A stretch of DNA of 64,000 bases from Candidatus Borrarchaeum weybense (GCA_019057385.1 JAHQJS010000005.1:320799-384798), one strand, 5' to 3'; counted from the stretch's first letter, positions 11,765 through 61,004 are shown. Translations and numbers: made by a program. The notes: generated from the sequence alone by a model not told the origin.

Positions 11765-12035
11765 TCCGATACCGGTTGATCCTGCCGGACCCGACCGCTA
11801 TTGGGATGGGATTAAGCCATGCAAGTTGTGCGCTCCTAGTTATGAAGGAGAGCGGCAAAAAGCTCTGTAACGTGTAGTTAACCTCTCCTCAGGACGGGCA
11901 TACCCTCGGGAAACTGAGGTCAATTCCCGATAGTTGATTAGGCCTGGAATGGTTTTTCTTCCAAAGGTATCTTCTCATGCGAGGATACTACCTGAGGATG
12001 GGACTGCATCTGATTAGGTAGATGGTGGGGTAACG

Positions 12036-12074
12036 TGACCTTTAGTACACTCTTACACACTATCGGTCTTATAC
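12036..12074 (+). other. 16S intron 1 (39 nt, ~E. coli 265/266)
   Basis: BHB GTAA/TTAT, bulges CG|T and AC|G, inner GACC/GGTC; removal restores GGGGTAACGGCCCACC. Confidence 0.9.
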
Positions 12075-12158
12075 GCCCACCATGCCGATAATCAGTACGG
12101 GCTGTGAGAGCAGTAGCCCGGAGATGGAGACTGAGACAACGCTCCAGGGCCTACGGGC

Positions 12159-12195
<37 letters not shown>

Positions 12196-12280
12196 TGACG
12201 GGGCCATCCCAAGTGCCATCCGATAAGGGTGGCTTTTTCTCAGTGTAAAAAGCTGGGCGAATAAGGGGAGGGCAAGGCTG

Positions 12281-12406
12281 ACTGGATTGAGGCAAATCAC
12301 TAACACTATATTCTCGATGAACTATACTTCCCTAAAACGCGGCGCTTATAGTTCATCAAAAACTCTTATGCTTATCAAACTTACAAAACGCCTCATCCAG
12401 GCCTAT
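12281..12406 (+). other. 16S intron 2 (126 nt, ~514/515)
   Basis: BHB AGGC/GCCT, inner CTGGA/TCCAG; restores GGCAAGGCTGGTGCCAGCC. Confidence 0.92.
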
Positions 12407-12614
12407 GTGCCAGCCGCCGCGGTAAAACCAGCTCCTCGAGTAGTCGGGAGTATTACTGGGCCTAAAGCGTCCGTAGCCGGCTTTGTAAGTTCCTGGTCAA
12501 ACCCAGCGGCTTAACCGTTGGCTTGCTGGGGATACTGCAAAGCTTGGGAATCAGAGAGGCCAAGGGTACTAACAGGGTAGGGGTGAAATCCTGTAATCCT
12601 GTTGGGACCACCGG

Positions 12615-12645
12615 ACAGCAGAGAGACACTCTCCTGCTGGGTGAG
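12615..12645 (+). other. 16S intron 3 (31 nt, ~722/723)
   Basis: BHB CACC/GGTG, inner CAGCAG/CTGCTG; restores GACCACCGGTGGCGAAGG. Confidence 0.92.
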
Positions 12646-12716
12646 TGGCGAAGGCGCTTGGCTGGAAGATGTCCGACGGTGAGGGACGAAAGCCAGGGGA
12701 GCGAACCGGATTAGAT

Positions 12717-12747
12717 ACTTGGTGCTAATTATTGTATCATGCTAAAA
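12717..12747 (+). other. 16S intron 4 (31 nt, ~793/794)
   Basis: BHB TTAG/CTAA; restores GGATTAGATACCCGGGTAGTCC. Confidence 0.9.
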
Positions 12748-12872
12748 ACCCGGGTAGTCCTGGCTGTAAACGATGCGAGCTAGGTGTTTGCGTGGCTACG
12801 GGCTATGCAAGTGCCGTAGAGAAGTCGTTAAGCTCGCCGCCTGGGGAGTACGGCCGCAAGGCTGAAACTTAA

Positions 12873-12934
<62 letters not shown>

Positions 12935-13040
12935 AAGCCTGCGGTTTAATTGGACTCAACGCCGGGAAGCTTACCGGGGGCGACAGCTGGATGAAAGCCA
13001 GGCTGATGACCTTGCTGGACTAGCTGAGAGGAGGTGCATG

Positions 13041-13919
13041 AGGTAGTCAGGTCGTTAGCAAAACTTTTCGTCGCTTTCCTTTTCCTCTCAATAACAAAAG
13101 TCTAGATTCTTCCTGATGTCCTTTTTAATTAAAAGGGATAAGTCAGGTTGAATTCAAATGACTATTGGCGACAAAGGAAAGTTTGTTTTACTTAAAACGA
13201 AAAGTCTCATCAATCGCATACGTCAACAGCATAATGAAACAGTTCGTGGTATTTACGAGCATGTCGCAGATCTTGTTAAATGGAATACATTTCGAGACTG
13301 GGCTTATAGAGGCTGGTCACGAATGCCTTTAGAAGTATTTAGGCGACTAAAAAGTAAATACAAACTCAAAGAATCACCAAAAACGGTTACAGAAAAACAA
13401 TGGTATACACTAACTCGAACGAGAGCCGCTGAAATAATGCATAAATGCCACCCTCATAAAGAGTGGCTATCAGAAGCCGCAAAAAAAGGCGGCGAGGCTG
13501 TAAAAGAAAAATATGGTGTTAAATATCTAACAAACCTTTCTGCAAAGGCGATTCACTCGTCATCTAGTTATAGGTATGAAGACGATGATGGAAACAAATA
13601 TCGCAGCCGCTTAGAATTATCCATCGCTAAACTACTCCGAACGCATAATTTGAAGTTTATATATGAACCAGAGATTGAGGGATATGTTCCAGATTTCAAG
13701 ATTAATAATCCCCTCATCGAAGTGTGCGGTTATTTCCGTGATAAAGATTATCTTACTCGACTTAAAGTCAAACTAACTGATTTAGTCAATAAAGGCTGGC
13801 AAATAATTCTAATATGCGAGCCTAGCAAAAAAGCAGTTCTCACTGAAGCAGTTAAAGGTATATCCATAAATGCGATTAAGACAACAGATGAGTTTCGACG
13901 ATTTCTGACTACCGGCAAA
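13041..13919 (+). mobile_element. 16S intron 6 (879 nt, ~1057/1058) carrying a nuclease ORF
   Basis: Inner stem GGTAGTCAG/CTGACTACC with BHB-like bulges; restores GGTGCATGGCCGTCGCCAG. Confidence 0.92.
13158..13919 (+). CDS. Intron-encoded PD-(D/E)xK-like endonuclease (linear reading runs to 13955; circular form ends ...TTGKR*)
   Basis: YRS.LE..IAKLL....KF.YEP.....PDF.....LIEV.G nuclease core; N-terminal HTH-like segment and KGG motif. Confidence 0.75.
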
Positions 13920-14233
13920 GCCGTCGCCAGTTCGTGCCGTGAGGTGTCCTGTTAAGTCAGGCAACGAACGAGACCCCTGCGCCTAGTTGCCAGCGGATCT
14001 CTGCGGAGATGCCGGGCACACTATGCGGACCGCAGCCGATAAGGCTGAGGAAGGAGGGGGCCACGGCAGGTCAGTATGCCCCGAATCCCCCGGGCTACAC
14101 GCGGGCTGCAATGACGGGTACAATAGGTTTCGACTCCGAGAGGAGGAGGCAATCCTCAAAACCCGTCGCAGTTGGGATCGAGCGCTGCAACTCGCGCTCG
14201 TGAACATGGAATCCCTAGTAATCGCGTGTCATC

Positions 14234-14284
<51 letters not shown>

Positions 14285-14318
14285 TCCGAGTGAGCTTTAG
14301 GCGAGGCGCGTTCCGTAG

Positions 14319-14351
14319 GCAGTATAGGACAACTGTCACATACTGACGGAA
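14319..14351 (+). other. 16S intron 7 (33 nt, tip of helix 44)
   Basis: BHB CCGT/ACGG, bulges AG|G and AA|G, inner CAGTA/TACTG; the host region is variable, so less certain. Confidence 0.75.
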
Positions 14352-14380
14352 GATCGTGTCGAACCTGGGGTTCGCAAGGA

Positions 14381-14435
<55 letters not shown>

Positions 14436-15257
14436 CGTAATTAATTTATCCTTTAAGGGCCAAGCTTGAGTCTGCTCATGCGAAAAGACTGCAATCGGGA
14501 ACAATATGATGTGAACCATAAATCACCAGGTTATACATGAAATGCCATATTTTTAGCCGCTTACATAGGTGCGAATGGAACCAGGGGCTCATTAGTGTCT
14601 GGATACATACGCCATCTGGTGGATGACTTGGTTTGGGCACTGAGGAAGGTCGTGGCAAGCTGCGATAAGCCTGGGGTAGGTGCATGCTGCCTTCGAACCC
14701 AGGATTGCCGAATAGGACTTCCAATTAAGGATTAATAACCCTTAATGATCCGTAAGGATCGGGAACCCCGTGAACGGAAACATCTTAGTAACGGGAGGAA
14801 AAGAAACCAATAGGGATTCCCTTAGTAAGGGCGACTGAACGGGGAAGAGAGCAAACTGAACCCCTTAAGGATGACTTAGGGGGGATGTGGTGTGGTAGGC
14901 CTGGTTTCGGCCTACTCAATGAAGTTGAAATGGTCTGGAACGTCCCGCCGTAGAGGGTGAAAGCCCCGTAAACGTAAATTGAGAGGTCTTATGACCAGTG
15001 TCCTTGAGTACTGTGGGCTGGATACCTCGCAGGAATCTGAGAGACACTCACTCTCAACTCTAAATATGTCCCAAATCCGATAGTGCACTAGTACCTTGAG
15101 GGAAAGTTGCAAAGTACCGCGAAAGCGGGGTTAAAAGAGCCTGAAACCAGATGGTAACAGACGTGCGCGGCCCGAAAGGGTAGAGTCTCTTTGAAGGAAC
15201 CCGGAGTAATCCGGCAGTACGAAGAGAGAGGACCAGGGTTGCGCAATCCGTCTTGAA

Positions 15258-15287
15258 ATCAGACGAGATATCCTCGTCTAACAAGAA
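15258..15287 (+). other. 23S intron A (30 nt)
   Basis: BHB CTTG/CAAG, inner AGACGAG/CTCGTCT; restores GTCTTGAAACACGGGCC. Confidence 0.9.
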
Positions 15288-15641
15288 ACACGGGCCGGGG
15301 AGTTTATGGTCGTGGCGAGTTTAAGTGGATCATCCACGTAGGCGAAGGGAAACCGACAGCACGCATCTAGGCGTACCAGCTCACCAACAGTTGGGCTGTG
15401 GTCTATACCGAACCTCATTTGTCCTAATTCTTTCAATGGCTTCGGCCAACGAGAGAGGCAGGGCGCCGAGTGGACGTATGGTCTTCATCTCGACTCAGTA
15501 GTGGGTATGGGCAACTAGTCAGGTGCGAGGTCTTAATCGGCCTGGAGTCACGATTGTAAGACCCGAAAGCGAGTGATCTAGCCCTGGGCAAGATGAAGCC
15601 AGGGGAAACTCTGGTGGAGGTCTGCAGGGGTGTTGACGTAC

Positions 15642-15676
15642 AAGGAAATGAGAGATCATACTCTCGTTCTGCGTAA
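15642..15676 (+). other. 23S intron B (35 nt, helix 35 region)
   Basis: BHB ACGT/GCGT; restores GTTGACGTACAATTCAC. Confidence 0.88.
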
Positions 15677-15716
15677 AATTCACTCCCATGACCTGGGGTT
15701 AGTGGCAAAAGACCAA

Positions 15717-16719
15717 TCGCATTAACAAATGAGCCAATAACTAGCGTTCTCTAATTCCATTAAAAGCAGCCTTTTAATACTAAATTTGATATTATCTGTG
15801 AATAGTTGAATTCGGAGAATCATTGATGACTCAAAGAAAAAAATGGACTGCATATCGCATTAACAAAGATTTTGTTCGCAACAACAAAAAACGAGAACTA
15901 GCAAAATTAGCAGCATTTTTACTTACAGACGGGGGTTTATCCAGAGATAAAAGAACATATGTCATTTATTTCACAAACAAGTCTGAAGTATTACACGAAG
16001 TGTTTGAATCTCTTATAAGAGATCTTGTCCCTCAAGCTAATATGCGAAGCTCAATGTACAAAGGTGTTAAAAGAACTTACTTTAACAGTCTAGAACTTGC
16101 TGAATTGCTTTTTGAACTATCAGATTCTTATCGAACGGCACCATGCGAATCGTATCCAGTTTGCGCTAAGATTCGCGATAAACCCGAAATGATTCCTTGT
16201 ATCAAGTGCAATCAAATACGTGGATATCCCAATGCTACGTATCCTGAGATCAGCGACTTGGAATTGCTGGAAGAAATCTTGCAAATAATTGCGGATACTG
16301 AAGGTGGACCCGTTCTTTTTATTCATAGATATCCTAAATATATCTCTATAAGAAGAAGAATTGAGATAGGATGTTCGCATCCGATTCTTAAGAAACAAAT
16401 TAAACAAATGCTGGAAAAATTAGCTATTCCTAGCAAAATCGCAAAGGATACAATTAGAATTGAAGGTAAAGGAATTAGGATCTTTCGTGACAAAATAGGC
16501 TTTCGAAAGAACGTCAAAATGAGTACTGGTAACTTCGAAGGCTATAATAAGAACAGTGTATTAGAAATTATGATTATCACTAACGAATTGATAACTAAGA
16601 AAAAGTTCTTTCCAAGTAAAGTTGATAACTTGAATGCAATGTTAATGAAGGCTGTAGAACTTTTTGATAATACTTTTTCGCGAGAACGCGTTGTTGAGTT
16701 TTTAGTTAATGGGGGTTAG
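15717..16719 (+). mobile_element. 23S intron C (1003 nt, ~789/790) encoding a LAGLIDADG homing endonuclease
   Basis: BHB GACC/GGTT, bulges AA|T and AG|A, inner CGCATTAAC/GTTAATGGG; the ORF stop TAG is the last 3 nt of the intron. Confidence 0.88.
15823..16719 (+). CDS. Two-motif LAGLIDADG homing endonuclease
   Basis: LAAFLLTDGGL...IYFTNKS..L...F and LQIIADTEGG; Cys cluster between the two domains. Confidence 0.85.
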   Translation: MMTQRKKWTAYRINKDFVRNNKKRELAKLAAFLLTDGGLSRDKRTYVIYFTNKSEVLHEVFESLIRDLVPQANMRSSMYKGVKRTYFNSLELAELLFELSDSYRTAPCESYPVCAKIRDKPEMIPCIKCNQIRGYPNATYPEISDLELLEEILQIIADTEGGPVLFIHRYPKYISIRRRIEIGCSHPILKKQIKQMLEKLAIPSKIAKDTIRIEGKGIRIFRDKIGFRKNVKMSTGNFEGYNKNSVLEIMIITNELITKKKFFPSKVDNLNAMLMKAVELFDNTFSRERVVEFLVNGG

Positions 16720-16750
16720 ATAAGGAAGGGTGTGTCCCTCCTTAGGTAAA
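16720..16750 (+). other. 23S intron D (31 nt), directly abutting intron C at the same exon site
   Basis: After C is removed: GACC/GGTA helix, bulges AA|A and AA|T, inner TAAGG/CCTTA; final product GACCAATCTAACTCGC. Confidence 0.8.
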
Positions 16751-17054
16751 TCTAACTCGCTTATAGCTGGTTCCCCCCGAAGTGCATCTCAGTGCAGTCT
16801 GATCCGAGGTAGCTGGTGGGGTAGAGCACTGATTGTGGAAAGGTGGAGGAGAAATCCTTGCCGCCGCTCTCAAACTCCGAATCTGCCAGCGCCGTAGACG
16901 GTTGGAAACGGGCGGCCGGGCGTAAGGTCCGGCGCCGAGAGAGGAACAACTCTGACTGCGGTTAAGGTCCCTAAGTGCTAGCTAAGTGTGATCATGAAGG
17001 CTGTGGGCAGTCTTAGACAGTGGGGAGGTAGGCTTAGAAGCAGCCATCCTCTAA

Positions 17055-17075
17055 ACTGCTAAAAAGCAGAGAGAA
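17055..17075 (+). other. 23S intron E (21 nt, GTPase-associated region ~1085)
   Basis: BHB CTCT/AGAG, inner CTGCT/AGCAG. Confidence 0.88.
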
Positions 17076-17675
17076 TGAACGCGTAACAGCGCACCCATTG
17101 AGACTGTCCGCGCCGAAAATGGACGGGGCTTAAGCTAGCCACCGATACCGCGGAGCTGACGAAAACTTAGCATGAATCGTCATCTCATTTTCGAATGATT
17201 TGATTTACTCATGTTAATTGAGTACTCAGTTGGTAGGGGGGCGAGCCGGTTGGGCGGAAGCTGGGCTGTGAAGTCCAGTGGACCGACCGGTTTCGCAGAT
17301 CCCGGTGGTAGTAACAGCGTAGTCGGGTGAAAATCCCGATCGCCGGAAGGGCAAGGGTTCCTCGGCAATGCGTCGTCAGCCGAGGGTTAGTCGGTCCTAA
17401 GTCTGGGCGTAAGTCGCGTAAGGCGAAAGGGTAAACGGTTTATATTCCGTTACTACGAGGATACACGCGGTAACGCAAGCCAAGATTCTGACGCTTTCGG
17501 ATAGGCCGATTAGAGCTATCGCTCTAATTAAATGTAGAAACCTCAGGAGTACCGTAATGGTGAGAATGAGGTGAATGCATGAATAGCTTTCCGTAATAGG
17601 TGAGTTCGGTCAACTCCAGGAGCCATTGAAAAAGGACTTGGAAGGATTCTTCGTATCCGTACCCAGAACTGACAC

Positions 17676-17726
17676 TTAGATCGTACAGGAACGTGACAAT
17701 CTAGTCATGCGGACGATTTAGTCAAA
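17676..17726 (+). other. 23S intron F (51 nt, ~1617/1618)
   Basis: BHB TGAC/GTCA, inner TAGATCGT/ACGATTTA; restores CTGACACAGGTG. Confidence 0.92.
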
Positions 17727-18384
17727 AGGTGCCCCTAGGTGAGCAGCCTAAGGCGTTTCGGGTGAACTCTGGGCTAGGGAAATCGGCAAATTGGCCCCGT
17801 ACCTTCGGAAGAAGGGGTGCCTACGGTCTTGGGTCGCAAACTTGGGACCGTAGGTCGCAGTGACCAGGAAGTGCTATCTGTTTAATAAAAACATAGCTAA
17901 CTGCTAGCGCGAAAGCGTGTGTACAGTTAGTGAGTCCTGGCCAGTGGCGGTAAGTTAAACCTGAGTTCAATCGGGCGAAGCTCCGCTAAACGCCGGGAGT
18001 AACTATAACTCTCTTAAGGTAGCCAAATGCCTTGCCGGATAAGTACCGGCGTGCATGAAGGGAGCAATGAGCGCTTTACTGTCCCAGCCTGGAACCCGGT
18101 GAACCCACTACCTGGCGAACAGTCCAGGGAGTCCTTGCGGGAAGAGAAGACCCCGTGGAGCTTTACTGCAGCCTGTGCCTGTGCTACGATCGTTGATGCA
18201 GAGCGTAGTCGGGAGCCGTTAATCCCAGCCTCTTCGGGGGTTGGAGTAGGCAACCTTGGAACACCGACCTTCTTTGATTGTATCGCTAACCGGAACGAAC
18301 GTTCTGGAACAAGTGCAGGTGGGCAGTTTCGCTGGGGCGGCAGACCCTTGAAAATGTATCAAGGGTGCCCAAAGGTCAGCTCAG

Positions 18385-18416
18385 AATGCAATTACGTAAG
18401 TGAGTTGCATGAGTAA
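18385..18416 (+). other. 23S intron G (32 nt)
   Basis: BHB GCTC/GAGT, inner ATGCAATT/AGTTGCAT. Confidence 0.9.
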
Positions 18417-18427
18417 GTGGGTCAGAA

Positions 18428-18470
18428 TCAACGGATGAGATTCTGGCTATGACCTTATCAGTTGCTGAAT
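18428..18470 (+). other. 23S intron H (43 nt)
   Basis: BHB TCAG/CTGA, inner CAAC/GTTG; restores GGTGGGTCAGAAATCCACC. Confidence 0.9.
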
Positions 18471-18488
18471 ATCCACCGTAGAGCGTAA

Positions 18489-18519
18489 AGGTGAAGGTGA
18501 CCACCACCTTGCCATGTAG
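18489..18519 (+). other. 23S intron I (31 nt)
   Basis: BHB GCGT/ATGT, inner AAGGTG/CACCTT; restores GAGCGTAAAGGTAAAAGC. Confidence 0.88.
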
Positions 18520-18642
18520 AGGTAAAAGCTGGCTTGACTGTATTCTGACCAGTAAAGAATGCAGGAACGAAAGTTGGGCTTAGCGATCCTCAATACCTTA
18601 TCAGTGGGGGTTTGAGGTGACAGAAAAGTTACCCCGGGGATA

Positions 18643-18756
18643 AATGCGTCAGTTTTGTGAATATAGAAAGTGTGTAGACAAAGCTTAGTAAAGTTGTATG
18701 GGTAATTTAGCTTTGACGATTGTACAACTTTATGAGCGTCTGCGGCGCATTCCCAA
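18643..18756 (+). other. 23S intron J (114 nt, A2450/A2451, peptidyl-transferase centre)
   Basis: BHB GGGA/TCCC, inner ATGCGTC/GGCGCAT; restores GGGGATAACAG. Confidence 0.92.
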
Positions 18757-18872
18757 ACAGAGTCGTCGCGGGCAAGAGCCCATATCGACCCCGCGGCTTG
18801 CTACCTCGATGTCGGCTCTTCCTATCCTCGATGTGCAGCAGCGTCGAAGGGTGGGGTTGTTCGCCCATTAAA

Positions 18873-18904
18873 AAGGAGGCGAAAAATACCTCTCTCCTTA
18901 ATAG
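18873..18904 (+). other. 23S intron K (32 nt, ~2566)
   Basis: BHB ATTA/TAAT, inner AGGAG/CTCCT. Confidence 0.9.
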
Positions 18905-19059
<155 letters not shown>

Positions 19060-19502
19060 ACAGGTTGGATTCTATCTGCAAGGACTGCCGGTGGTCTGAG
19101 GGTAGGGTGTTCTTAGTACGAGAGGAACGGAACGTCGGAGCCTCTAGTGTACCAGTTGTCCGAAAGGGCAGAGCTGGGCAGCCACGCTCTAACCGATAAG
19201 AGCTGAAAGCATCTAAGCTCGAAGCGGGTCCCGAAAAGAGACCACCAATCACCAACAGAGGAGTTAGGGTGACCGTCCGTAACTGTTGGGGACGAGGACT
19301 CCAGGAAAACACTGGTTTGATAGAGCTGAGGTGTAAGTGTCGAGGGTACAGAGATGGTACTCTTAGTATTGTACACTCGCCTAAATCCCTCCAACCTCTT
19401 GGTCATGTACATAACCGTCTCTTCGGAGATAGTTGTGTCGTGATTAATGTTGTTGGGCCGAGGCACTCAGCCTGCAGCCACTAAACGTCCGAGTGTTCAG
19501 AC

Positions 19503-39067: not shown

Positions 39068-39616
39068 ATGACAGAGTTATTGGAGAAAATTCCACCTGAG
39101 AAGCGTTGGGCAATAACTGCTAAGTTTCTTATTGGATTTTCCATTTTAAGAGGGTCGAAAACCGTCTTACCTCTTATGGGTAAGGAGGAAGGAATTATAG
39201 CGCCTGTTTTGGGGTTTGAAAAGTTTGAAGAGATACTTGCAAAGGTATTCTATGAAGGTGGCAGACGTATCTATCTCAATACTAAACAAATGCTCAACAT
39301 ACCTGTAAACGATGCTGCGGAAGCGGCTAAATTAGGCGCAGTCGTTGAAAATTTGATAAGCGGCCCCGAATGGAAGCGAGAATACATTGAGAAATCCCCA
39401 CAAAGAGTTGTATGCAGAATAACTAAGTGTCCGTGGTGGGAGAGATATAAGGAGCTTGAGGTAGATCCTGAACTTAGACCTTGCGACGGAGCACATGAAA
39501 TTCAGAATAGAGAAGGTCTTAAGGCAGTTAATCCCAAGATTACGTTTAAGTTCACGAAAGCAATGCCGAGAGGCGATTCTTATTGTGAGGAAGTCTTCGA
39601 ATTCAATAAAGAATAG
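39068..39616 (+). CDS. V4R/ATC-hydrolase-like domain protein (long subfamily)
   Basis: TKCPWW, C..AH and KAMPRGDSYCE. Confidence 0.8.
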   Translation: MTELLEKIPPEKRWAITAKFLIGFSILRGSKTVLPLMGKEEGIIAPVLGFEKFEEILAKVFYEGGRRIYLNTKQMLNIPVNDAAEAAKLGAVVENLISGPEWKREYIEKSPQRVVCRITKCPWWERYKELEVDPELRPCDGAHEIQNREGLKAVNPKITFKFTKAMPRGDSYCEEVFEFNKE

Positions 39617-39899
39617 ACGATTTGATAAATAGGAGTATTTCTAAGATAACTGTTCTGTGTTGAGTGTCAATCGTTAAAATTCTCAACTCAATTAAAATGC
39701 TTAGAGGATTGATAAGCATTAAAAATATTTTATTAAACTAAATATAATCGTAACTTCTTCTCCTTTTTGTTTCTTAAAACGCAATTTACTTCGATCATTT
39801 TGTTTTCTTTATTCTTTGCGTAGTTTTCCTCTATACTTGTCTTTTGTAAAGGATAACTATATATATAACTTGTCATATAGTACACAATGCATTGTCATA

Positions 39900-39939
39900 C
39901 AATGATGAATATCTTTGCTTAAATAGATATTCATCATTG
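39900..39939. repeat. Perfect 15-bp inverted repeat
   Basis: CAATGATGAATATCT-N10-AGATATTCATCATTG. Confidence 0.85.
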
Positions 39940-39963
39940 AAATCATTGACATATGACAAGGCA

Positions 39964-40070
39964 TGAGGCGAGTTCACGCCAAGTGTAAGGGTGTCATTAT
40001 CTGAAGAGCTATTTGAATGGTTCTCAAAGAATTGTGGCCCCAACGCCTCAAGCGCCGAGGAGGGGCGCTC
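39964..40070 (+). ncRNA. Candidate structured 5' leader RNA, copy A
   Basis: Multi-stem fold covarying with copy B (59705-59810, minus strand), ending in the GAGGAGG-loop hairpin. Confidence 0.6.
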
Positions 40071-40096
40071 AATAAGTACCCAGGTTAAGGAAAGGA

Positions 40097-40627
40097 GTGA
40101 ACATGATAAAAGATGAGTCTAAAGAACTATTAGAGAAAACCCCAGAAAAAACGCGTTGGGAAATAGCTACAAAAACTTACACTGGATCGGTTGCAGGCTA
40201 TGATATATTTGTTGGGCAAGCTATGGGTAAGGAAAAGTGGATAGAGCTACATGATAATCTTTGGGGTGAAGGCGGTAAGATGACGTATCCACAAATTAAA
40301 GAGGCCTTCAACATCGAAGTAAAAGATGCTCCAAGTGCAGGTACCTTGGTTGGTTTAGTTGCATTACTAGGACAGGGACCTGAATATGAATGGGAAATTA
40401 CCGAGTCAACGCCAGAAAGACAAGTCTTAAGGATAACTAAATGTCCGTGGTTCAACAGATACACAGAATTTGGCTTGAAGCCCGAGGACATGATTTGTGC
40501 TGGTGGCCATATAGCATTCGTGGGAGAGGGAATCAAGGCTGTAAATCCCAAAATAAAACACACACTTACAAAAGCAATGCCATGGGGAGATTCATACTGC
40601 GAAGGGGTCTTCGAGTTAGAAGAATAG
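40097..40627 (+). CDS. V4R/ATC-hydrolase-like domain protein (short subfamily)
   Basis: TKCPWF, C.GGH and KAMPWGDSYCE. Confidence 0.8.
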   Translation: MNMIKDESKELLEKTPEKTRWEIATKTYTGSVAGYDIFVGQAMGKEKWIELHDNLWGEGGKMTYPQIKEAFNIEVKDAPSAGTLVGLVALLGQGPEYEWEITESTPERQVLRITKCPWFNRYTEFGLKPEDMICAGGHIAFVGEGIKAVNPKIKHTLTKAMPWGDSYCEGVFELEE

Positions 40628-40692
40628 TAAGCAGTTAAATCCTGTGTGATTTTGAACCTTATATCTTCTCCATTTTTTTTTGGAAATTTCAA

Positions 40693-40712
40693 AGCGCCGA
40701 GGAGGGGCGCTC
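40693..40712 (+). promoter_or_regulatory. Conserved leader hairpin GCGCC-GAGGAGG-GGCGC
   Basis: Recurs before each cassette gene, just after a poly-T tract. Confidence 0.75.
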
Positions 40713-40745
40713 AATAAGTTCCCAACTTAAAGGAAGGATGAAAAA

Positions 40746-41267
40746 ATGTCTAAAATGTCGAAAGAGGAATTGGAAAAGATTCCAGCTGAGCAGCGATGGG
40801 CAATAGCAGGTGCAAACTTCGTTGGAGCGTATACCGCTCTAGGAATGTTTGTTCAACCTCTCTTGGGTAAAGAAAAGATGCAAGAGATAGACAACAATCT
40901 ATGGGGTGAAGGTGGTAAAATGTCATATCCGATGATCAAAGAGGCCCTCAACATACCCGTGGAGGATGCAATAGGGGGCTATAAAGTAGTCGCGGCTGTA
41001 GCAGCTATACAAGCTGGAGGCACATTCGAGGATGAAATGATTGAGGTAACACCTGAAAGAGTTGTATGGAATACAGTCAAATGTCCGTGGTGGGACACAG
41101 CTAAACAATTCGGAGAAAAACCTGAAAACATGACGTGCCCTGGTGGTCATCAAGCAATTTGTGAAGCTGGACTTAAAGCGCTTAATCCCAATTTTACCTT
41201 TAAACTCACAAAAGCAATGCCAAATGGAGATCCCGTCTGCCAAAATGTCATCGAGTTCAAAAAATAA
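40746..41267 (+). CDS. V4R/ATC-hydrolase-like domain protein (short subfamily)
   Basis: KCPWW, CPGGH and KAMPNGDPVC. Confidence 0.8.
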   Translation: MSKMSKEELEKIPAEQRWAIAGANFVGAYTALGMFVQPLLGKEKMQEIDNNLWGEGGKMSYPMIKEALNIPVEDAIGGYKVVAAVAAIQAGGTFEDEMIEVTPERVVWNTVKCPWWDTAKQFGEKPENMTCPGGHQAICEAGLKALNPNFTFKLTKAMPNGDPVCQNVIEFKK

Positions 41268-41336
41268 GCGTAAACAGCAAGTTCTTGTGCGGTCTTGAAT
41301 CTCATACTCTCAATATTTTTTTTGGAAAATGTCTAC

Positions 41337-41355
41337 GCGCCGAGGAGGGGCGCTC
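41337..41355 (+). promoter_or_regulatory. Conserved leader hairpin
   Basis: GCGCCGAGGAGGGGCGCTC. Confidence 0.75.
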
Positions 41356-41388
41356 TACAAATACCCAGGGTAAGGAGAGGAGGAAAAA

Positions 41389-41895
41389 ATGGCTGAAGAG
41401 ATTTTGAAGAAGATACCAGCGGAGAAACAATGGGCAATAGCGTCTAAAACCTTTACCACAACAGCAACAGCTATGAGCATGATGTATGGGGATGTCGTGG
41501 GCCCTGAAAAGAACAAAGAGATTTTAATTGCGTTATGGGGTGGAGGCGGTAAAAGTTCGTATCCACGAATGAAGGAAGCCTTCAACATACCAGTAGATGA
41601 TGCAATTGGAGTGGCTACTTTAGGCAGTGTTACTTCAAAAGTAAGCATGGGACCTGAACTAGAGTCCGAGTTAGTCGAGGCGGCCCCAGAAAGAGCTGTA
41701 GTTAGAGTGACGAAGTGTCCGTGGTGGGAAAGATATAAGGAGTTTGGTATAACTGAGGGAGCAATTTGTGATGCAAGTCATACAGCAAATGCTACAGAAG
41801 GGGTCAAAGCAGTTAATCCTAAGATAACGTTCAAGATGACGAAGGCATTACCAAGAGGAGATCCATACTGCGAACTGGTGTACGAGTCTAAGTAA
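41389..41895 (+). CDS. V4R/ATC-hydrolase-like domain protein (short subfamily)
   Basis: TKCPWW, CDASH and KALPRGDPYCE. Confidence 0.8.
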   Translation: MAEEILKKIPAEKQWAIASKTFTTTATAMSMMYGDVVGPEKNKEILIALWGGGGKSSYPRMKEAFNIPVDDAIGVATLGSVTSKVSMGPELESELVEAAPERAVVRVTKCPWWERYKEFGITEGAICDASHTANATEGVKAVNPKITFKMTKALPRGDPYCELVYESK

Positions 41896-41968
41896 GCTTA
41901 AACCGTAGGCTTTTGTGTGGAAAATACAAATCCCATACAGTCTCCACATTTTTTTTTGGAAATGTTTA

Positions 41969-41988
41969 AGCGCCGAGGAGGGGCGCTC
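41969..41988 (+). promoter_or_regulatory. Conserved leader hairpin
   Basis: AGCGCCGAGGAGGGGCGCTC. Confidence 0.75.
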
Positions 41989-42021
41989 TACAAATACCCA
42001 GGGTAAGGAGAGGAGGAAAAA

Positions 42022-42534
42022 ATGGCTGAAGAGATTTTAAAGAAGATATCACCTGAAGAGAAATGGGCCTGGACTGCTAATACTCATACCGCAACCCTAG
42101 TGATAAGAGGAGAAAATACCCTTGCGCCTCTTATAGGGGCTGAAAAGTACAAAGAGATAAATACCAAGATATATGGTGAAGGTGGTAAGATCCTGTTTCC
42201 AATGGTTAAAGAAGCTTACAATATTCCTGTTGAGGATGCCATAGGTGCATCTATATTAGCTACTGTTGTTGGTGAGTTAACTGTAGGGCCTGGATTCGAA
42301 GGTGAAACGGTGGAAGAGACCCCAAAGCGAGTTGTTGCTCGAACAACGAAGTGTCCATGGATGGAGAAGTACAAAGAGTATAATGTAAAACCCAAGTATA
42401 TCCCTTGTGTCGAAGGTCATGAAGCTTGGGGGGACTTAGGAGTCAAGGCAGTAAATCCCAGGCTATCTTTCAAGATGCTGAAGGCAATGCCAAAAGGCGA
42501 TCCCTACTGTGAATATGTCTTTGAGTTTGAGTGA
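42022..42534 (+). CDS. V4R/ATC-hydrolase-like domain protein (short subfamily)
   Basis: TKCPWM, CVEGH and KAMPKGDPYCE. Confidence 0.8.
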   Translation: MAEEILKKISPEEKWAWTANTHTATLVIRGENTLAPLIGAEKYKEINTKIYGEGGKILFPMVKEAYNIPVEDAIGASILATVVGELTVGPGFEGETVEETPKRVVARTTKCPWMEKYKEYNVKPKYIPCVEGHEAWGDLGVKAVNPRLSFKMLKAMPKGDPYCEYVFEFE

Positions 42535-42601
42535 GCCCATTAAACTGGCTCTAGTGCAGTCTTGACCCTTATATCTTCTCCACTTTTTTTGGAAATGTCT
42601 A

Positions 42602-42621
42602 AATGCCGAGGAGGGGCGTTC
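42602..42621 (+). promoter_or_regulatory. Conserved leader hairpin, compensatory variant
   Basis: AATGCC-GAGGAGG-GGCGTT keeps the pairing (A-U, U-G). Confidence 0.75.
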
Positions 42622-42653
42622 TACAAATACCCAACTTAAGGGAGGTGAAAGAG

Positions 42654-43028
42654 ATGGTAGTAAAGATAATCTATACTTGTAATTTCTTACCAGGCAAACA
42701 GCAGGAGTACCTTGAGTGGGCTCAGAAAGCGGTGCCGATTTTTTTGGCCCCCGAAGAACTGAAGAAAATGAGTGCTTATCAGAATTGGTTAGGTCACTCG
42801 ACCCCAATGCGATGGGTAGAGTTTGAGTTTGAGGATATGAAAGCTTATCAAAAGTATTGGGCACGAGAAGAGATTATAAAGGTAAGTGACGAGTGGGCCA
42901 GCATAACAACAAACCAAGAAGCTAAGATATTATTGCTAGTTTATCAGAACTCGCGAGAAGACCCCTCTACTTGTTGGGGGGATGAATCGTGTTACGTGTT
43001 CACTTTCACAGTGGTCCCCAACACTTAA
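42654..43028 (+). CDS. Dimeric alpha/beta-barrel-like protein; C-terminus altered by an insertion (native end ...LVYEKAK* at 43210)
   Basis: GGAGGTG before ATG 42654; PGKQQEYLEW...EFEDMKAY..YW pattern. Confidence 0.65.
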   Translation: MVVKIIYTCNFLPGKQQEYLEWAQKAVPIFLAPEELKKMSAYQNWLGHSTPMRWVEFEFEDMKAYQKYWAREEIIKVSDEWASITTNQEAKILLLVYQNSREDPSTCWGDESCYVFTFTVVPNT

Positions 43029-43195
43029 ATAAGGTGTGGTACCTCTGGTAGTTAGAATTGAGCTGAGGTCACACTCGCCACTTCTCATATTAACCATGCA
43101 TTCAGGGCAGGAACTGCCCGTAGAGCCTGTTTGACATGTCCCGGTGGGGAATGAATGATTCAGGAAGCCAGCCTACTTGTAGGGTGGTAGTTCAC
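42945..43195 (+). mobile_element. Non-autonomous IS200/IS605 derivative with an omegaRNA-like right end
   Basis: Follows TTTAT; left-end hairpin CCCCTC..TACTTG..GGGGGGATGAA; right end CAGGAAGCC..CTACTTGTAGGGTGGTAGTTCAC; excision restores the host reading frame. Confidence 0.8.
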
Positions 43196-43517
43196 GAAAA
43201 GGCGAAATAACAACATGTTCATAAAGAGTGGTTGTTTTTCAACCAATTTTCCTTTTTTTCAAAAAAACAGTAAGTTTGTATGTTTACATTTGTCAAATTA
43301 TTAGTTTATGTAAACGCAAATTCTTTTAAAGATTAGTCTCAATTAAGAGAAAGAATTTTGATATAACCTGCTGTCGAGTTTTGGTTTTTAATACCTTTAC
43401 GAAGGTAAAGATTTGCTTTACGTAAACGGATAAACTTATAAGTCATAAGTTGTAGATGAACCAAGAAAAGAGATCTTTTAATTTAATAATGTCTCAATAA
43501 TTTTTACATTTGTAAAC

Positions 43518-58658: not shown

Positions 58659-59162
58659 TTTTTCTTCACCAACCTTGATACTTAATCGAATTTTGCATGT
58701 TTTGATTTTAGACAAAAGCAAACAGCACTACTTCCAATATTAGTATTCAATACTCCGATAAAAATTCTCTGCAAAAAAAATAAATATATATTTGCGAATA
58801 TTTTAAGGGTAGTTGCAAAATATAGTACTTTACATTTTCACAGGATTAAATTTCTCAAAAAACAGTCATTCACTCTTCTTCTTTCTTAATAGACTTTAGA
58901 TTTTGTAATCTCTGGATTCTACACATTTACAAAAAAATTGGAGGGGGATATACGTCCAATATTCCTAAAAGGATATCGAGAGGTATAATGCCCGAAAAAG
59001 AATGGCTTCGGATGTGTCTCCCCCATTGGTATATTTTCTTCCTTTTAGAATTTGCATCTTAGAAGTTTTTGTCCACAAAATCGTCAATCGAGTTCGTTAA
59101 GGAAGTTTATAAAAAAAAAATGGGTGGTGTAAGATTCTAAAAGCAACAAGGCTAACCGTTTA

Positions 59163-59672
59163 CTATTTCTTGAACTTGTAGAGAAATTCGCAGTACTCAT
59201 CTCCCCACTCTGGGCATTTTGTTAACTTAAAGTCTATTTTAGGATTAACTGCCTTGAATCCTTCTTTCACAAATGTGGCACAAGGTTCGCCGCAAACTTT
59301 AAAGGCATCAAGAACATTATATTCTTTAGCCCTCTCCCAGAGCGCACATTTATATGTTCTCCTCACAGCTCTTTCTGGTGTTGACTCAACAATTTCAGAT
59401 GTGTATTCAGGACCGAGGGCAACTTTGCCAACGACAAGGGATAATCTAGCAGCCCCTGCTGCATCTTCTACTGGTATGTTGTATTTTTGCTGAATCATTG
59501 GATGAAGCGCCGCACCGCCTCCACCCCACATTCCATTTAAAATCTCTATGACTTTTTCTTTACCCAAGGCACCCACAAGTTGCGCCATTAAACCCATTGC
59601 TGATCCACTGAAAACATTAGTGGCGAATGCCCATTTATCTTCAACTGGGACTTTATCAGCTATCTCAGCCAT
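59163..59672 (-). CDS. V4R/ATC-hydrolase-like domain protein (short subfamily)
   Basis: YKCALW, CGEPC and KCPEWGDEYCE. Confidence 0.8.
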   Translation of the reverse strand: MAEIADKVPVEDKWAFATNVFSGSAMGLMAQLVGALGKEKVIEILNGMWGGGGAALHPMIQQKYNIPVEDAAGAARLSLVVGKVALGPEYTSEIVESTPERAVRRTYKCALWERAKEYNVLDAFKVCGEPCATFVKEGFKAVNPKIDFKLTKCPEWGDEYCEFLYKFKK

Positions 59673-59704
59673 TTTCCATCCTCTCCTCAATTTGGGTACT
59701 TATA

Positions 59705-59810
59705 GTGCGCCCCTCCTCGGCGCTTAGGGTGTAAAGAGTCACTTTAATGAGAGTCCTTCAAGTTCACTCTTTCAATAGTGACTCCTGTTCATTTGACTGA
59801 ACTTACCCTA
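59705..59810 (-). ncRNA. Candidate structured 5' leader RNA, copy B
   Basis: TAGGGT/ACCCTA, GTTCA/TGAAC, AGGAGTCACT/AGTGACTCTT and AGAGT/ACTCT stems, then GCGCC-GAGGAGG-GGCGC. Confidence 0.6.
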
Positions 59811-59814
59811 GGAC

Positions 59815-59828
59815 TTGTCATATGACAA
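59815..59828. promoter_or_regulatory. Palindrome TTGTCATATGACAA (candidate operator)
   Basis: Perfect 14-bp palindrome; near-identical TTGACATATGACAA at 39946-39959 in the same position relative to leader A. Confidence 0.6.
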
Positions 59829-60023
59829 TTAAAAAATTAAAATTGCCATTAAATGACAAGTCAAAAATATATTTATAGCAAGTTCTATATATAGTTTTTG
59901 CAAATTAATACTTTACAAATATCTAGTTTATGCTACATATAAGTAACGGCGTGAAAGACTTTCATAACTACAAGGAAAATCGAAATTGTCTCCCTCCATC
60001 ACCCCCTAAAATAGGATTTATTT

Positions 60024-61004
60024 TCATTCTTCTAATTTTACGACGCATTCACAATAGGGATCTCCAGCACACATACAAGTAATCATTTCCCATGTAGCGT
60101 TTGGATTTATGGTACTACCAATGACATGATCGAAGCGATTGCACCAATCACTGATATCCTTATATTCTGTTTGAAACGGACACTTAATAATTCTCCATCT
60201 GTTGATTGTTTTCGATCGCTCAAGTATATTGGTATCCTGACCTGCGAGTTCATGCCAGATGTCCCAGCACTTCCCAATTGTTTCGCAATCATTGCCTTCT
60301 AGTTTGAAGATGGTTCGAATTGTATTGGCAATATTCTTGATTCTATCACCCATTTCGTTGAACGTTTCATACATTCTAATTGCTTCTAACGCACCATATT
60401 TCTCGCGTAGCGCATATAACCAACTTTTATGGTTAGATGTCCAACCTTTCATAGCAAAATTGTATTTTAGTTCCCATGGTATCTTCATTTTCTTAACCGT
60501 AGTCTTCACAGTTACCTCATTCGATGTTTTCTCTTGTAACCTCCAAACGTATTCGCAATAGGGATCTCCGGCACACATTCCTTTAGGGCGTTCGAGGATA
60601 ACCTTTGAATTAACAATCTTTCCCATAATATCGAAGAAGGATAAGGACCAGTCGCTGATATCTTCGTATCCTGTTTCAAGTGGACACTTGGTGACCTTTC
60701 TTCTATTGATTATTTTGGATCGCTTAAGCAAACCAGCTTCAGTCCCAGTTAGCTCATCCCAGATGTCAAGTATTTCTCCAATCGTTTCGCAATCGTTGCC
60801 TTTAAGGTTGAAGATGGTTAGAATAGCATTTGCAAAATTCTTTACTCTTTCATCAATTTTTTGAGCCCTCTCAAAAAGATCAAGAGCTGCTGCTGGACCA
60901 TATTTCTTCCGGTTAGCATATAAGTATCCTCGATGGCTGGATGCCCAACCTCTCATTGCCCAGTCATGTTTTAGTTCCCAGGGTATCGCTAGTTTCTTAG
61001 CCAA
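60024..61004 (-). CDS. Tandem two-domain V4R/ATC-hydrolase-like protein
   Basis: Two internal repeats, each with KCP and MCAGDPYCE. Confidence 0.8.
   Translation of the reverse strand: MAKKLAIPWELKHDWAMRGWASSHRGYLYANRKKYGPAAALDLFERAQKIDERVKNFANAILTIFNLKGNDCETIGEILDIWDELTGTEAGLLKRSKIINRRKVTKCPLETGYEDISDWSLSFFDIMGKIVNSKVILERPKGMCAGDPYCEYVWRLQEKTSNEVTVKTTVKKMKIPWELKYNFAMKGWTSNHKSWLYALREKYGALEAIRMYETFNEMGDRIKNIANTIRTIFKLEGNDCETIGKCWDIWHELAGQDTNILERSKTINRWRIIKCPFQTEYKDISDWCNRFDHVIGSTINPNATWEMITCMCAGDPYCECVVKLEE

Follow-up and report, generated by a model that had tools for sequence, protein, structure and literature searches.

Ribosome standby sites, formulated in the model of de Smit and van Duin and represented by the tisB and MS2 coat leaders, and the leaders bound by CsrA/RsmA, such as that of Bacillus subtilis hag, in which CsrA bridges a GGA hairpin with the Shine-Dalgarno (SD) sequence and whose fellow targets are often surface or secreted proteins, are among the described systems closest to the element considered here. 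We know of no archaeal counterpart of CsrA. In the Bacilli whole mRNAs are stabilised by a strong SD that lacks a start codon and/or by occlusion of the 5' end (PMC3997798), and stabilising SDs (STAB-SD) and 5' stabilisers are found in the cryIIIA, ermC and aprE leaders of Bacillus (Agaisse and Lereclus 1996, reviewed in PMC3997798). The element that we compare with them is a hairpin-led 5' leader of 'Candidatus Borrarchaeum weybense', present six times in a stretch of 64,000 nt (GCA_019057385.1, JAHQJS010000005.1:320799-384798; called the window below, with positions counted from its first base), before each of the five genes of a tandem array and before one remote gene. Nearly unchanged, this leader recurs in six or more archaeal phyla, ahead of genes unrelated to one another, and appears to be a signal of gene expression that is widely shared and so far undescribed. 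We favour, with a probability of roughly 0.45, the reading that it is a portable module which would act post-transcriptionally in cis, through ribosome docking or standby and/or protection of the 5' end.

As to its kind, it would by analogy fall with structured 5'-leader elements such as the STAB-SD, standby-site and protein-operator leaders. With the STAB-SD it shares an SD in the 5' untranslated region (UTR) far from the start codon and/or a 5'-proximal stem-loop, portability to unrelated genes and a link to strong expression; here, too, an SD-complementary sequence of the 5' UTR lies apart from the initiation site. It differs in being archaeal and spread across phyla, and in showing its SD in the loop of a fixed GC hairpin which is coupled to a UACCCA box. 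Both a place near the mature 5' end and an effect on half-life are putative. Like a standby site it would offer an accessible ribosome-binding element beside a partly structured true site (a predicted CCC/GGG helix, and in some lineages a second hairpin, abut the SD), but known standby sites are unstructured and without sequence conservation, whereas this is a sequence-invariant hairpin. CsrA leaders resemble it in having a GGA hairpin loop upstream and a second site at the SD some tens of nucleotides away; CsrA, however, is bacterial, and its family PF02599 had no match in this genome (completeness 100), while control genomes did match.

At gathering thresholds the only Rfam 15 families matched anywhere in the window were rRNA, RNase P and tRNA; at E <= 10 over 39850-43250 there were only chance miRNA and snoRNA matches, none of which fell on the hairpins. 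Neither the 17-mer hairpin sequence, its parts or its complement nor an equivalent element was found in the literature, the coverage of which left out subscription journals, so that a prior description is possible. Both searches agree with an earlier reading of the window made without databases (the sequence-only reading), which knew of no described archaeal element of this sort.

The hairpin and its leader module

The 17-mer GCGCCGAGGAGGGGCGC (GCGCC-GAGGAGG-GGCGC), which folds into the hairpin here called P1, occurs exactly at 40052, 40694, 41337 and 41970 on the plus strand and at 59707-59723 on the minus strand; the fifth array copy, at 42603 (+), is the variant ATGCC-GAGGAGG-GGCGT. These six matches at three or fewer mismatches compare with 0.04 expected from shuffled sequences. 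P1 is the same in five of the six and is changed in the remaining one only in ways which preserve pairing, G1-C17 having become A-U through changes on both sides and C2-G16 having become U.G. From the end of the hairpin to the ATG the distance is 34-35 nt in every window copy, and a purine-rich SD belonging to the gene itself lies 4-9 nt ahead of every start. AGGAGG, which forms the core of the loop, is complementary to the 3' end of the 16S rRNA (...GGATCACCTCCT / ...GGAUCACCUCCU), which is encoded within the window, and is placed 39-41 nt before the start codon, apart from the SD of the gene.

The first leader module (40052-40102, +) consists of P1 (40052-40068), a linker (40069-40076), TACCCA (40077-40082) and the SD GGAAAGGAG, before the ATG at 40103. 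The second (40694-40745, +) has P1 at 40694-40710, TTCCCA at 40719-40724, the SD AAGGAAGGA and its ATG at 40746, and the third (41337-41388, +) has P1 at 41337-41353, TACCCA at 41362-41367, the SD GGAGAGGAGG and its ATG at 41389. In the fourth (41970-42021, +) P1 occupies 41970-41986 and TACCCA 41995-42000, before the ATG at 42022; in the fifth (42603-42653, +) the variant P1, AUGCC..GGCGU, occupies 42603-42619, with TACCCA at 42628-42633, the SD GGGAGGUGA and the ATG at 42654. The remote module (59673-59723, -) runs from P1 (59723-59707) through TACCCA (59698-59693) and the SD GAGGAGAGGA to the ATG at 59672.

Throughout the genome (4.18 Mb) a relaxed scan, allowing any 5-nt arms with at least four pairs around the loop RAGGAGG, located ten copies on two contigs, four of them outside the window. 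Each of the ten reads in the sense of its gene, precedes the start codon by 34-36 nt and comes ahead of the gene's SD. A covariance model (R1) built from 60 diverse instances gave ten matches at E <= 9e-7 (6e-12 for leader module 1), the next best being at E = 0.38. Since both approaches pick the same ten copies, all of them at gene starts, we reject the interpretation of the hairpin as a miniature inverted-repeat transposable element (MITE) or repetitive extragenic palindrome (REP), either of which the sequence-only reading had named as grounds for abandoning its proposal; no significant model match lies away from gene starts. That reading had reported six hairpins at a fixed distance from their genes and distinct from the SDs of these, a loop complementary to the 16S tail and compensatory stem changes in the copy at 42603, and had suggested the genome search just described; all of these observations are borne out by the figures above.

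The notion that the module has no function and is simply intergenic DNA that tandem duplication and gene conversion have brought with them, or a repeat of MITE type, draws on the array itself, in which the genes of cassettes 1-4 are paralogues arranged in tandem and their trailers are homologous. From P1 through codon 8 (41354-41412 and 41987-42045) leaders 3 and 4 do not differ at all, even though the two proteins are only 49% identical, which argues for gene conversion at the 5' ends of cassettes. We nevertheless consider this notion highly improbable: the module stands before non-homologous genes on two contigs here and in many phyla, its sense orientation and its spacing to SD and start codon are constant, the significant model matches are at gene starts in ten of ten cases, compensatory changes maintain the stem, and viral contigs yielded a single motif match among 2.9 million. 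Since gene conversion operates in the array, local identity is by itself weak evidence, and it is the conservation across phyla which carries the argument.

The module extends beyond the hairpin. Alignment of the ten genomic copies gives (U)AA, P1, an 8-nt linker (nnUAnAAR), the CCCA box, 6-8 nt, the SD and the start codon; the box is an invariant (U/A)CCCA, usually UACCCA, and in this genome always stands 8 nt past the hairpin. The general plan is a 5-bp GC stem (P1), a 7-nt loop (R-AGGAGG), an A-rich linker (AnAAR), UACCCA, 6-10 nt or in some lineages an inserted hairpin, the SD and the start codon. Over 151 distinct instances the linker measures 8 nt in 87 (this genome, the ANME-1 group of anaerobic methanotrophs, Thermoplasmata) and 11 nt, as nRUGAnAnAAR, in 35 (Bathyarchaeia, several Asgard genera, Archaeoglobi). 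Common to both classes is AnAAR-UACCCA(A/G), with the SD, often GGAGGUGA, 10-13 nt after; in Thermoplasmata and some others an extra hairpin (P2) is found between box and SD. By itself AAR-TACCCA is not enriched in this genome (90 occurrences against about 82 expected). In the rRNA of this organism the complement of UACCCA is confined to two TGGGTA sites, both in the large subunit (LSU) gene. A loop-box pseudoknot was considered and dropped, the pairing amounting on inspection to 2-3 bp at most.

In members of the long-linker class (L036, L038, L049, L061, L086, L088) n-RUG-A follows P1 directly, and its RUG invariably makes a start codon at 6 nt from the SD of the loop. With the 11-nt linker it would encode M-x-x-(I/V)-P-(K/N), in a frame which varies relative to the box and to the main open reading frame (ORF); the RUG positions and the GA 5' of P1 also fit the core of a kink-turn (K-turn). 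The short-linker class, this genome included, has no start codon directly after P1. Two loci of another genome (L017 and L024 of G005) carry the 17-mer of P1, altered in the loop in one of them, but no UACCCA box; about 40 nt upstream are identical in the two, and the next ORF is about 90 nt off, which may represent a different use or a decayed form.

Pairing, promoters and processing

Variation within the stem supports the view, from comparison of sequences, that the element acts as an RNA hairpin, its variants keeping the pairing of the sense strand. Searches that left the stem free recovered the compensatory forms GUGCC/GGCAC (three loci in two genomes) and GCACC/GGUGC, in addition to AUGCC/GGCGU in this genome, as well as the U.G intermediates GUGCC/GGCGC, GCGUC/GGCGC and GCGCC/GGCGU. 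Three of the five pairs thus show two-sided change (C-G/U.G/U-A, G-C/A-U and G-C/A-U) with all pairing kept, a count made on hand-picked variants, which illustrates the covariation and should not be taken for an unbiased rate. Exceptions are an A.C variant (ACGCC) and a single decayed copy. Single changes of P1 are mostly C-to-U on the sense strand, giving a wobble in the RNA and a mismatch on the other strand. The idea of an RNA hairpin, put forward in the sequence-only reading with absence of covariation as its possible downfall, is strengthened by these compensatory and wobble variants.

The downstream helix P2 behaves likewise. In the same place it takes many sequences (CCCGC/GCGGG, CCUGC/GCAGG, CUCGC/GCGGG, CCCCG/CGGGG, CCGCC/GGCGG, CCAC/GUGG, CCUC/GAGG), and RNAalifold, given ten Thermoplasmata leaders, found three P2 pairs with compensatory change; their consensus fold further joins the box's CCC to GGG on the 5' edge of the SD.

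At the level of DNA, one might regard the palindrome GCGCC-N7-GGCGC as the operator of a dimeric transcription factor beside a TATA-like linker, with leaderless mRNAs or mRNAs of very short leader. The arms do form a perfect palindrome, the linker is TATA-like in AT-rich lineages (for example TTTATAAATA in ANME-1), and in some copies it is 21-25 nt from the ATG, close to the spacing expected between TATA box and start. Such a transcript would, however, lose the strong, well-spaced SD which in nearly all copies lies between linker and ATG; since a strong SD follows the box by a mere 10-13 nt, a start 22-26 nt downstream of the AT-rich linker would leave it out of the transcript, and the linker can hardly serve as promoter for an mRNA led by an SD. 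It is TATA-like only in the AT-rich lineages, the GC-rich Thermoplasmata having GGTACAAG and GCGAGAAG in its place, and it is separated from the ATG by 21 to more than 35 nt. Although asymmetric, the 7-nt spacer is conserved, the C-to-U bias produces G.U in RNA and A.C on the other strand, and P2 covaries as RNA. An operator of this type therefore strikes us as very improbable.

Across 142 instances no TATA-like signal keeps a constant spacing upstream of P1, which would place P1 inside long leaders. This, together with the array, where P1 stands 12-13 nt past a T-tract with no clear TATA box, could speak for RNA processing as a form of punctuation, that is, for an endonuclease which cuts read-through or long-leader transcripts just upstream of P1 and leaves monocistronic mRNAs starting with the hairpin. 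In a metatranscriptome, one 151-nt contig spans 42457-42608, bridging the end of coding sequence 4, its T-run and the first bases of P1, and in the same library a Bathyarchaeia-like contig includes P1 together with 66 nt on its upstream side and 255 nt on its downstream side; in both cases DNA carry-over is possible. The RNA runs concerned (X1, X2) contain just 5-6% of the words and gave a few 151-nt contigs. For the ANME-1 locus L068 no RNA library was listed as containing it. A helix abutting P1 upstream is no commoner than in shuffled sequence (0.48 against 0.44 with the upstream sequence shuffled), which counts against processing. In ANME-1 a minihelix resembling a tRNA T-arm lies about 8 nt before P1 in two loci (L058, L085), but Rfam makes no tRNA call on the ANME-1 minihelices. 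The processing scheme, which we hold to be improbable as a separate explanation, moreover overlaps the favoured reading of a portable cis-acting leader, since a processed 5' hairpin would serve as a stabiliser.

In five further ANME-1 loci (L056, L062, L071, L126, L138) the minihelix (...GGTTCGAATCC..., with a CCCTC/GAGGG closing stem) is located about 60-80 nt before P1. It is a possible substrate of tRNase Z or RNase P which would set the 5' end of the mRNA.

Lineages, downstream genes and candidate mechanism

The exact 17-mer was found again in other families of the same phylum. One genome per prokaryotic species was then scanned for P1 followed by N6-18 and TACCCA, giving at least 117 loci. 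Among the matches listed, to which the counts of clusters, N-termini and neighbours below also refer, are Bathyarchaeia, Methanosuratincola, Methanophagales/ANME-1, Archaeoglobus/Archaeoglobaceae, Methanosarcinales, Methanocellales, Thermoplasmata/Methanomassiliicoccales, Hadarchaeota and Aenigmatarchaeota, and, from the Asgard group, Jord-, Frey-, Prometh-, Hod- and Borrarchaea. One leader of 'Candidatus Borrarchaeum yapensis' (L106) has one mismatch to window leader 4 over the compared stretch, the first codons included. Within lineages the distribution is patchy: of 301 Asgard genomes sampled the motif is present in 13, which belong to 4 of 70 genera, and it occurs in 23 of 61 genomes of the order around one Methanomassiliicoccales metagenome-assembled genome (MAG), at 1-6 copies each. 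Three contigs with the motif belong to bacterial-labelled MAGs (L043, L050 and L064; the labels are Aminicenantes, Spirochaetota and Dehalococcoidales). The leader and downstream gene of L050 closely resemble those of the Bathyarchaeia loci L102 and L105, and the bacterial-labelled contigs may therefore be mis-binned archaeal DNA.

In this genome the leader precedes four unrelated families: besides the ATC_hydrolase-like proteins and the unknown protein of the array, the four copies outside the window stand before two distant ATC_hydrolase-like proteins, a DUF3303 protein and an FMN reductase-like flavoprotein. The 137 distinct downstream proteins fall into 69 clusters. Outside this genus a crude rule assigns N-termini resembling signal peptides or transmembrane segments to 85 of 113, whereas among the other ORFs of these loci it does so for 133 of 761. 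The secreted or membrane set of downstream proteins takes in surface proteins of very large size as well as small secreted proteins in tandem families. In Thermoplasmata, as in this genome, the genes behind the leader encode small cytosolic proteins (ATC_hydrolase-like, DUF3303, FMN reductase and, judged by sequence, GYD-like and SnoaL-like). No neighbouring gene is conserved across lineages among the 117 loci listed. ArsR-type winged-helix genes recur beside motif-bearing secreted-protein genes (L086, L088, L120, L128, L140; L039, L113, L139), within ANME-1-like and Thermoplasmata lineages only and not across lineages.

A riboswitch for a small ligand or ion, with P1 and the UACCCA box as aptamer, would account for a small and highly conserved core placed directly before the ribosome-binding site, perhaps with a CCC/SD switch. 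The structured core is, however, merely a 5-bp hairpin, loop and box would pair over no more than 2-3 bp by inspection, no Rfam family matches, and there is no common pathway or transporter theme. About 70 unrelated clusters and the absence of a common neighbour exclude a pathway-specific riboswitch and favour a general expression signal; a riboswitch of any sort we find hardly credible. For the same reason we cannot follow the sequence-only reading in its suggestion that the hairpin controls the ligand-binding proteins of the array, given that the same leader stands before clusters which are mostly secreted or membrane proteins.

We infer that the module is a high-expression leader. In the portable cis-acting module that we favour, the stable hairpin would offer a perfect SD, remote from every start codon, to the 3' tail of the 16S rRNA, and the docked 30S subunit would be kept beside the real ribosome-binding site, as at a standby site; and/or the hairpin may block 5'-to-3' decay in the manner of a STAB-SD-like 5' stabiliser. 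The CCC of the box would pair weakly with the first G's of the true SD, or these G's would sit at the foot of P2. In the array each cistron might, thanks to the module, be translated and possibly stabilised independently, whether the cistrons derive from read-through from the putative upstream promoter (the TATA-like sequence at 39857) or from transcripts begun or cut just past each T-tract.

Several points weigh against this proposal. The support from RNA libraries consists of a few read-length contigs that could be DNA. Docking by the anti-SD leaves the fixed R-AGGAGG loop unexplained, since true SDs vary freely, and equally the constancy of the stem and of AnAAR-UACCCA, which points to a sequence-specific partner. 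The 6-bp duplex which a 7-nt loop would form in the 30S cleft is putative. Predicted pairing between CCC and SD barely exceeds that of shuffled controls (0.73 against 0.66). Most retrieval patterns fixed the loop, and its invariance across lineages is partly by construction; likewise part of the identity within the array, leaders 3 and 4 into their 8 codons, is due to gene conversion and not to selection.

A regulator acting in trans, either an RNA-binding protein or a small RNA, might instead read P1 with AnAAR-UACCCA and switch the translation of a mostly secreted or surface regulon. The sequence is nearly invariant far past the needs of pairing; an AGGA hairpin loop with an SD 25-30 nt away makes a bipartite layout; the patchy spread described above would fit a factor which some lineages lack; and the excess of signal- or membrane-like N-termini resembles a regulon. 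On the other hand no candidate factor was found, CsrA being absent from this genome, no neighbouring gene is conserved across loci, and the cytosolic, unrelated targets here and in Thermoplasmata would be odd for one regulon. L7Ae was weighed as a reader, based upon the K-turns of the l7ae and nop5 leaders (PMC6298567). In the 11-nt-linker class, found elsewhere, GA 5' and nRU-GA 3' of P1 resemble the GAU bulge of the l7ae leader with its G.A/A.G pairs, -1b:-1n would be C:G, and a terminal loop would lie on the canonical (C) helix as in some l7ae leaders (PMC6298567). The two flanks co-occur strongly, being present on both sides in 46 instances, only on the 3' side in 3, only on the 5' side in 19 and on neither in 83. 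The invariant loop and the UACCCA box are, however, not K-turn features. All copies of this genome lack the flanks: in the window P1 is preceded by UAA, AAA, UAC or the like and followed by ucUAc or ucAAu. Where they do occur the non-canonical (NC) helix is wanting: over 39 distinct flanks of the long-linker class, positions 3-6 form Watson-Crick or G.U pairs in 18-31% of cases, a level which we took as chance without a control. On balance a trans-acting regulator seems to us less likely than the portable module, of which it is the main rival.

Whatever its partner, the cis-acting module that we favour could be an ancient or horizontally shared archaeal signal of translation or stability with a conserved reader, either the 30S subunit, in contact with the SD of the loop and with UACCCA, or a CsrA-like global regulator of the secretome of sediment archaea; we offer this tentatively and with some doubt. 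Little of the post-transcriptional control exerted in Archaea has been mapped, and cis-regulatory RNAs of archaeal origin are very few in Rfam. A core of about 30 nt, near-identical before diverse genes from Asgard archaea to ANME-1, Bathyarchaeia, Thermoplasmata and DPANN, implies a common reader, and with it a general rule for expressing certain, mostly extracellular, genes. It would give a handle on ribosome recruitment and mRNA decay in uncultured archaea, a possible marker in MAG annotation for true start codons and for secreted or highly expressed genes, and a candidate portable expression part for archaeal genetics.

The cassette array and its surroundings

The array comprises four ATC_hydrolase-like genes on the plus strand, at 40103-40627 (174 aa), 40746-41267 (173 aa), 41389-41895 (168 aa) and 42022-42534 (170 aa), and a fifth gene at 42654-43028 (+), the 124-aa product of which is unrelated to the others and belongs to no Pfam family. 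The remote gene, at 59163-59672 on the minus strand, is again ATC_hydrolase-like (169 aa), and the five leader-bearing paralogues have proteins 39-49% identical.

Each of the first four genes is followed by a trailer (+): 40628-40693, with T9 at 40673-40681 ending 12 nt before the next P1; 41268-41336, with T8 at 41316-41323; 41896-41969, with T9 at 41949-41957; and 42535-42602, with T7 at 42584-42590. The remote gene has a homologous one (59090-59162, -) with T10 at 59120-59111, and the five align as TAAAC...CTTGTG...TTGAAyC..TTATAy..CTCCA followed by T7-T10. The description given in the sequence-only reading, of diverged proteins with related trailers extending to the remote gene, an unrelated fifth gene and hairpins which come after poly-T without an obvious TATA box, accords with these data. 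Its broader proposal, of a modular functional system of leader, ORF and terminator, can be kept in part: the element is indeed tied to gene starts in all ten genome model matches, but it is not a device of the array, since the complete leader-ORF-trailer cassette is, by sequence comparison, a tandem expansion in this genus and the leader alone is found elsewhere. Antitermination, one of the roles it had suggested for the hairpin, is unlikely given a position after the T-tract and not before it.

Upstream of the array lies a long leader (39857-40051, +) with the TATA-like CTATATATA at 39857-39865 and the near-palindrome TTGACATATGACAA at 39946-39959, a region which by its sequence is the probable promoter of the array. 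That of the remote gene (59724-59894, -) has a TATA-like element at 59894-59885 and the palindrome TTGTCATATGACAA at 59828-59815. The TATA-like elements are thus about 190 nt (first copy) and about 165 nt (remote copy) upstream of P1. In both regions the TATA-like CTATATATA is followed by CTTGTCAT... and by the palindrome or near-palindrome TTG(A/T)CATATGACAA (39946-39959 and 59815-59828), a resemblance which points to a shared long leader or operator.

A sixth ATC_hydrolase-like paralogue (39068-39616, +) stands directly before the array without a P1 leader; it has a short AT-rich promoter-like region upstream and its own SD. Upstream of the remote leader, 60024-61004 (-) encodes a 326-aa protein with two tandem 'IPWELK...KCP...CAGDPYCE' repeats, which is distantly ATC_hydrolase-like and without a Pfam match. 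Elsewhere in the window the rRNA genes are oversize: that of the small subunit (SSU; 11769-14434) measures 2666 nt against a model of 1478 positions, and that of the LSU (14595-19398) 4804 nt against 2987, lengths which would imply large insertions or introns.

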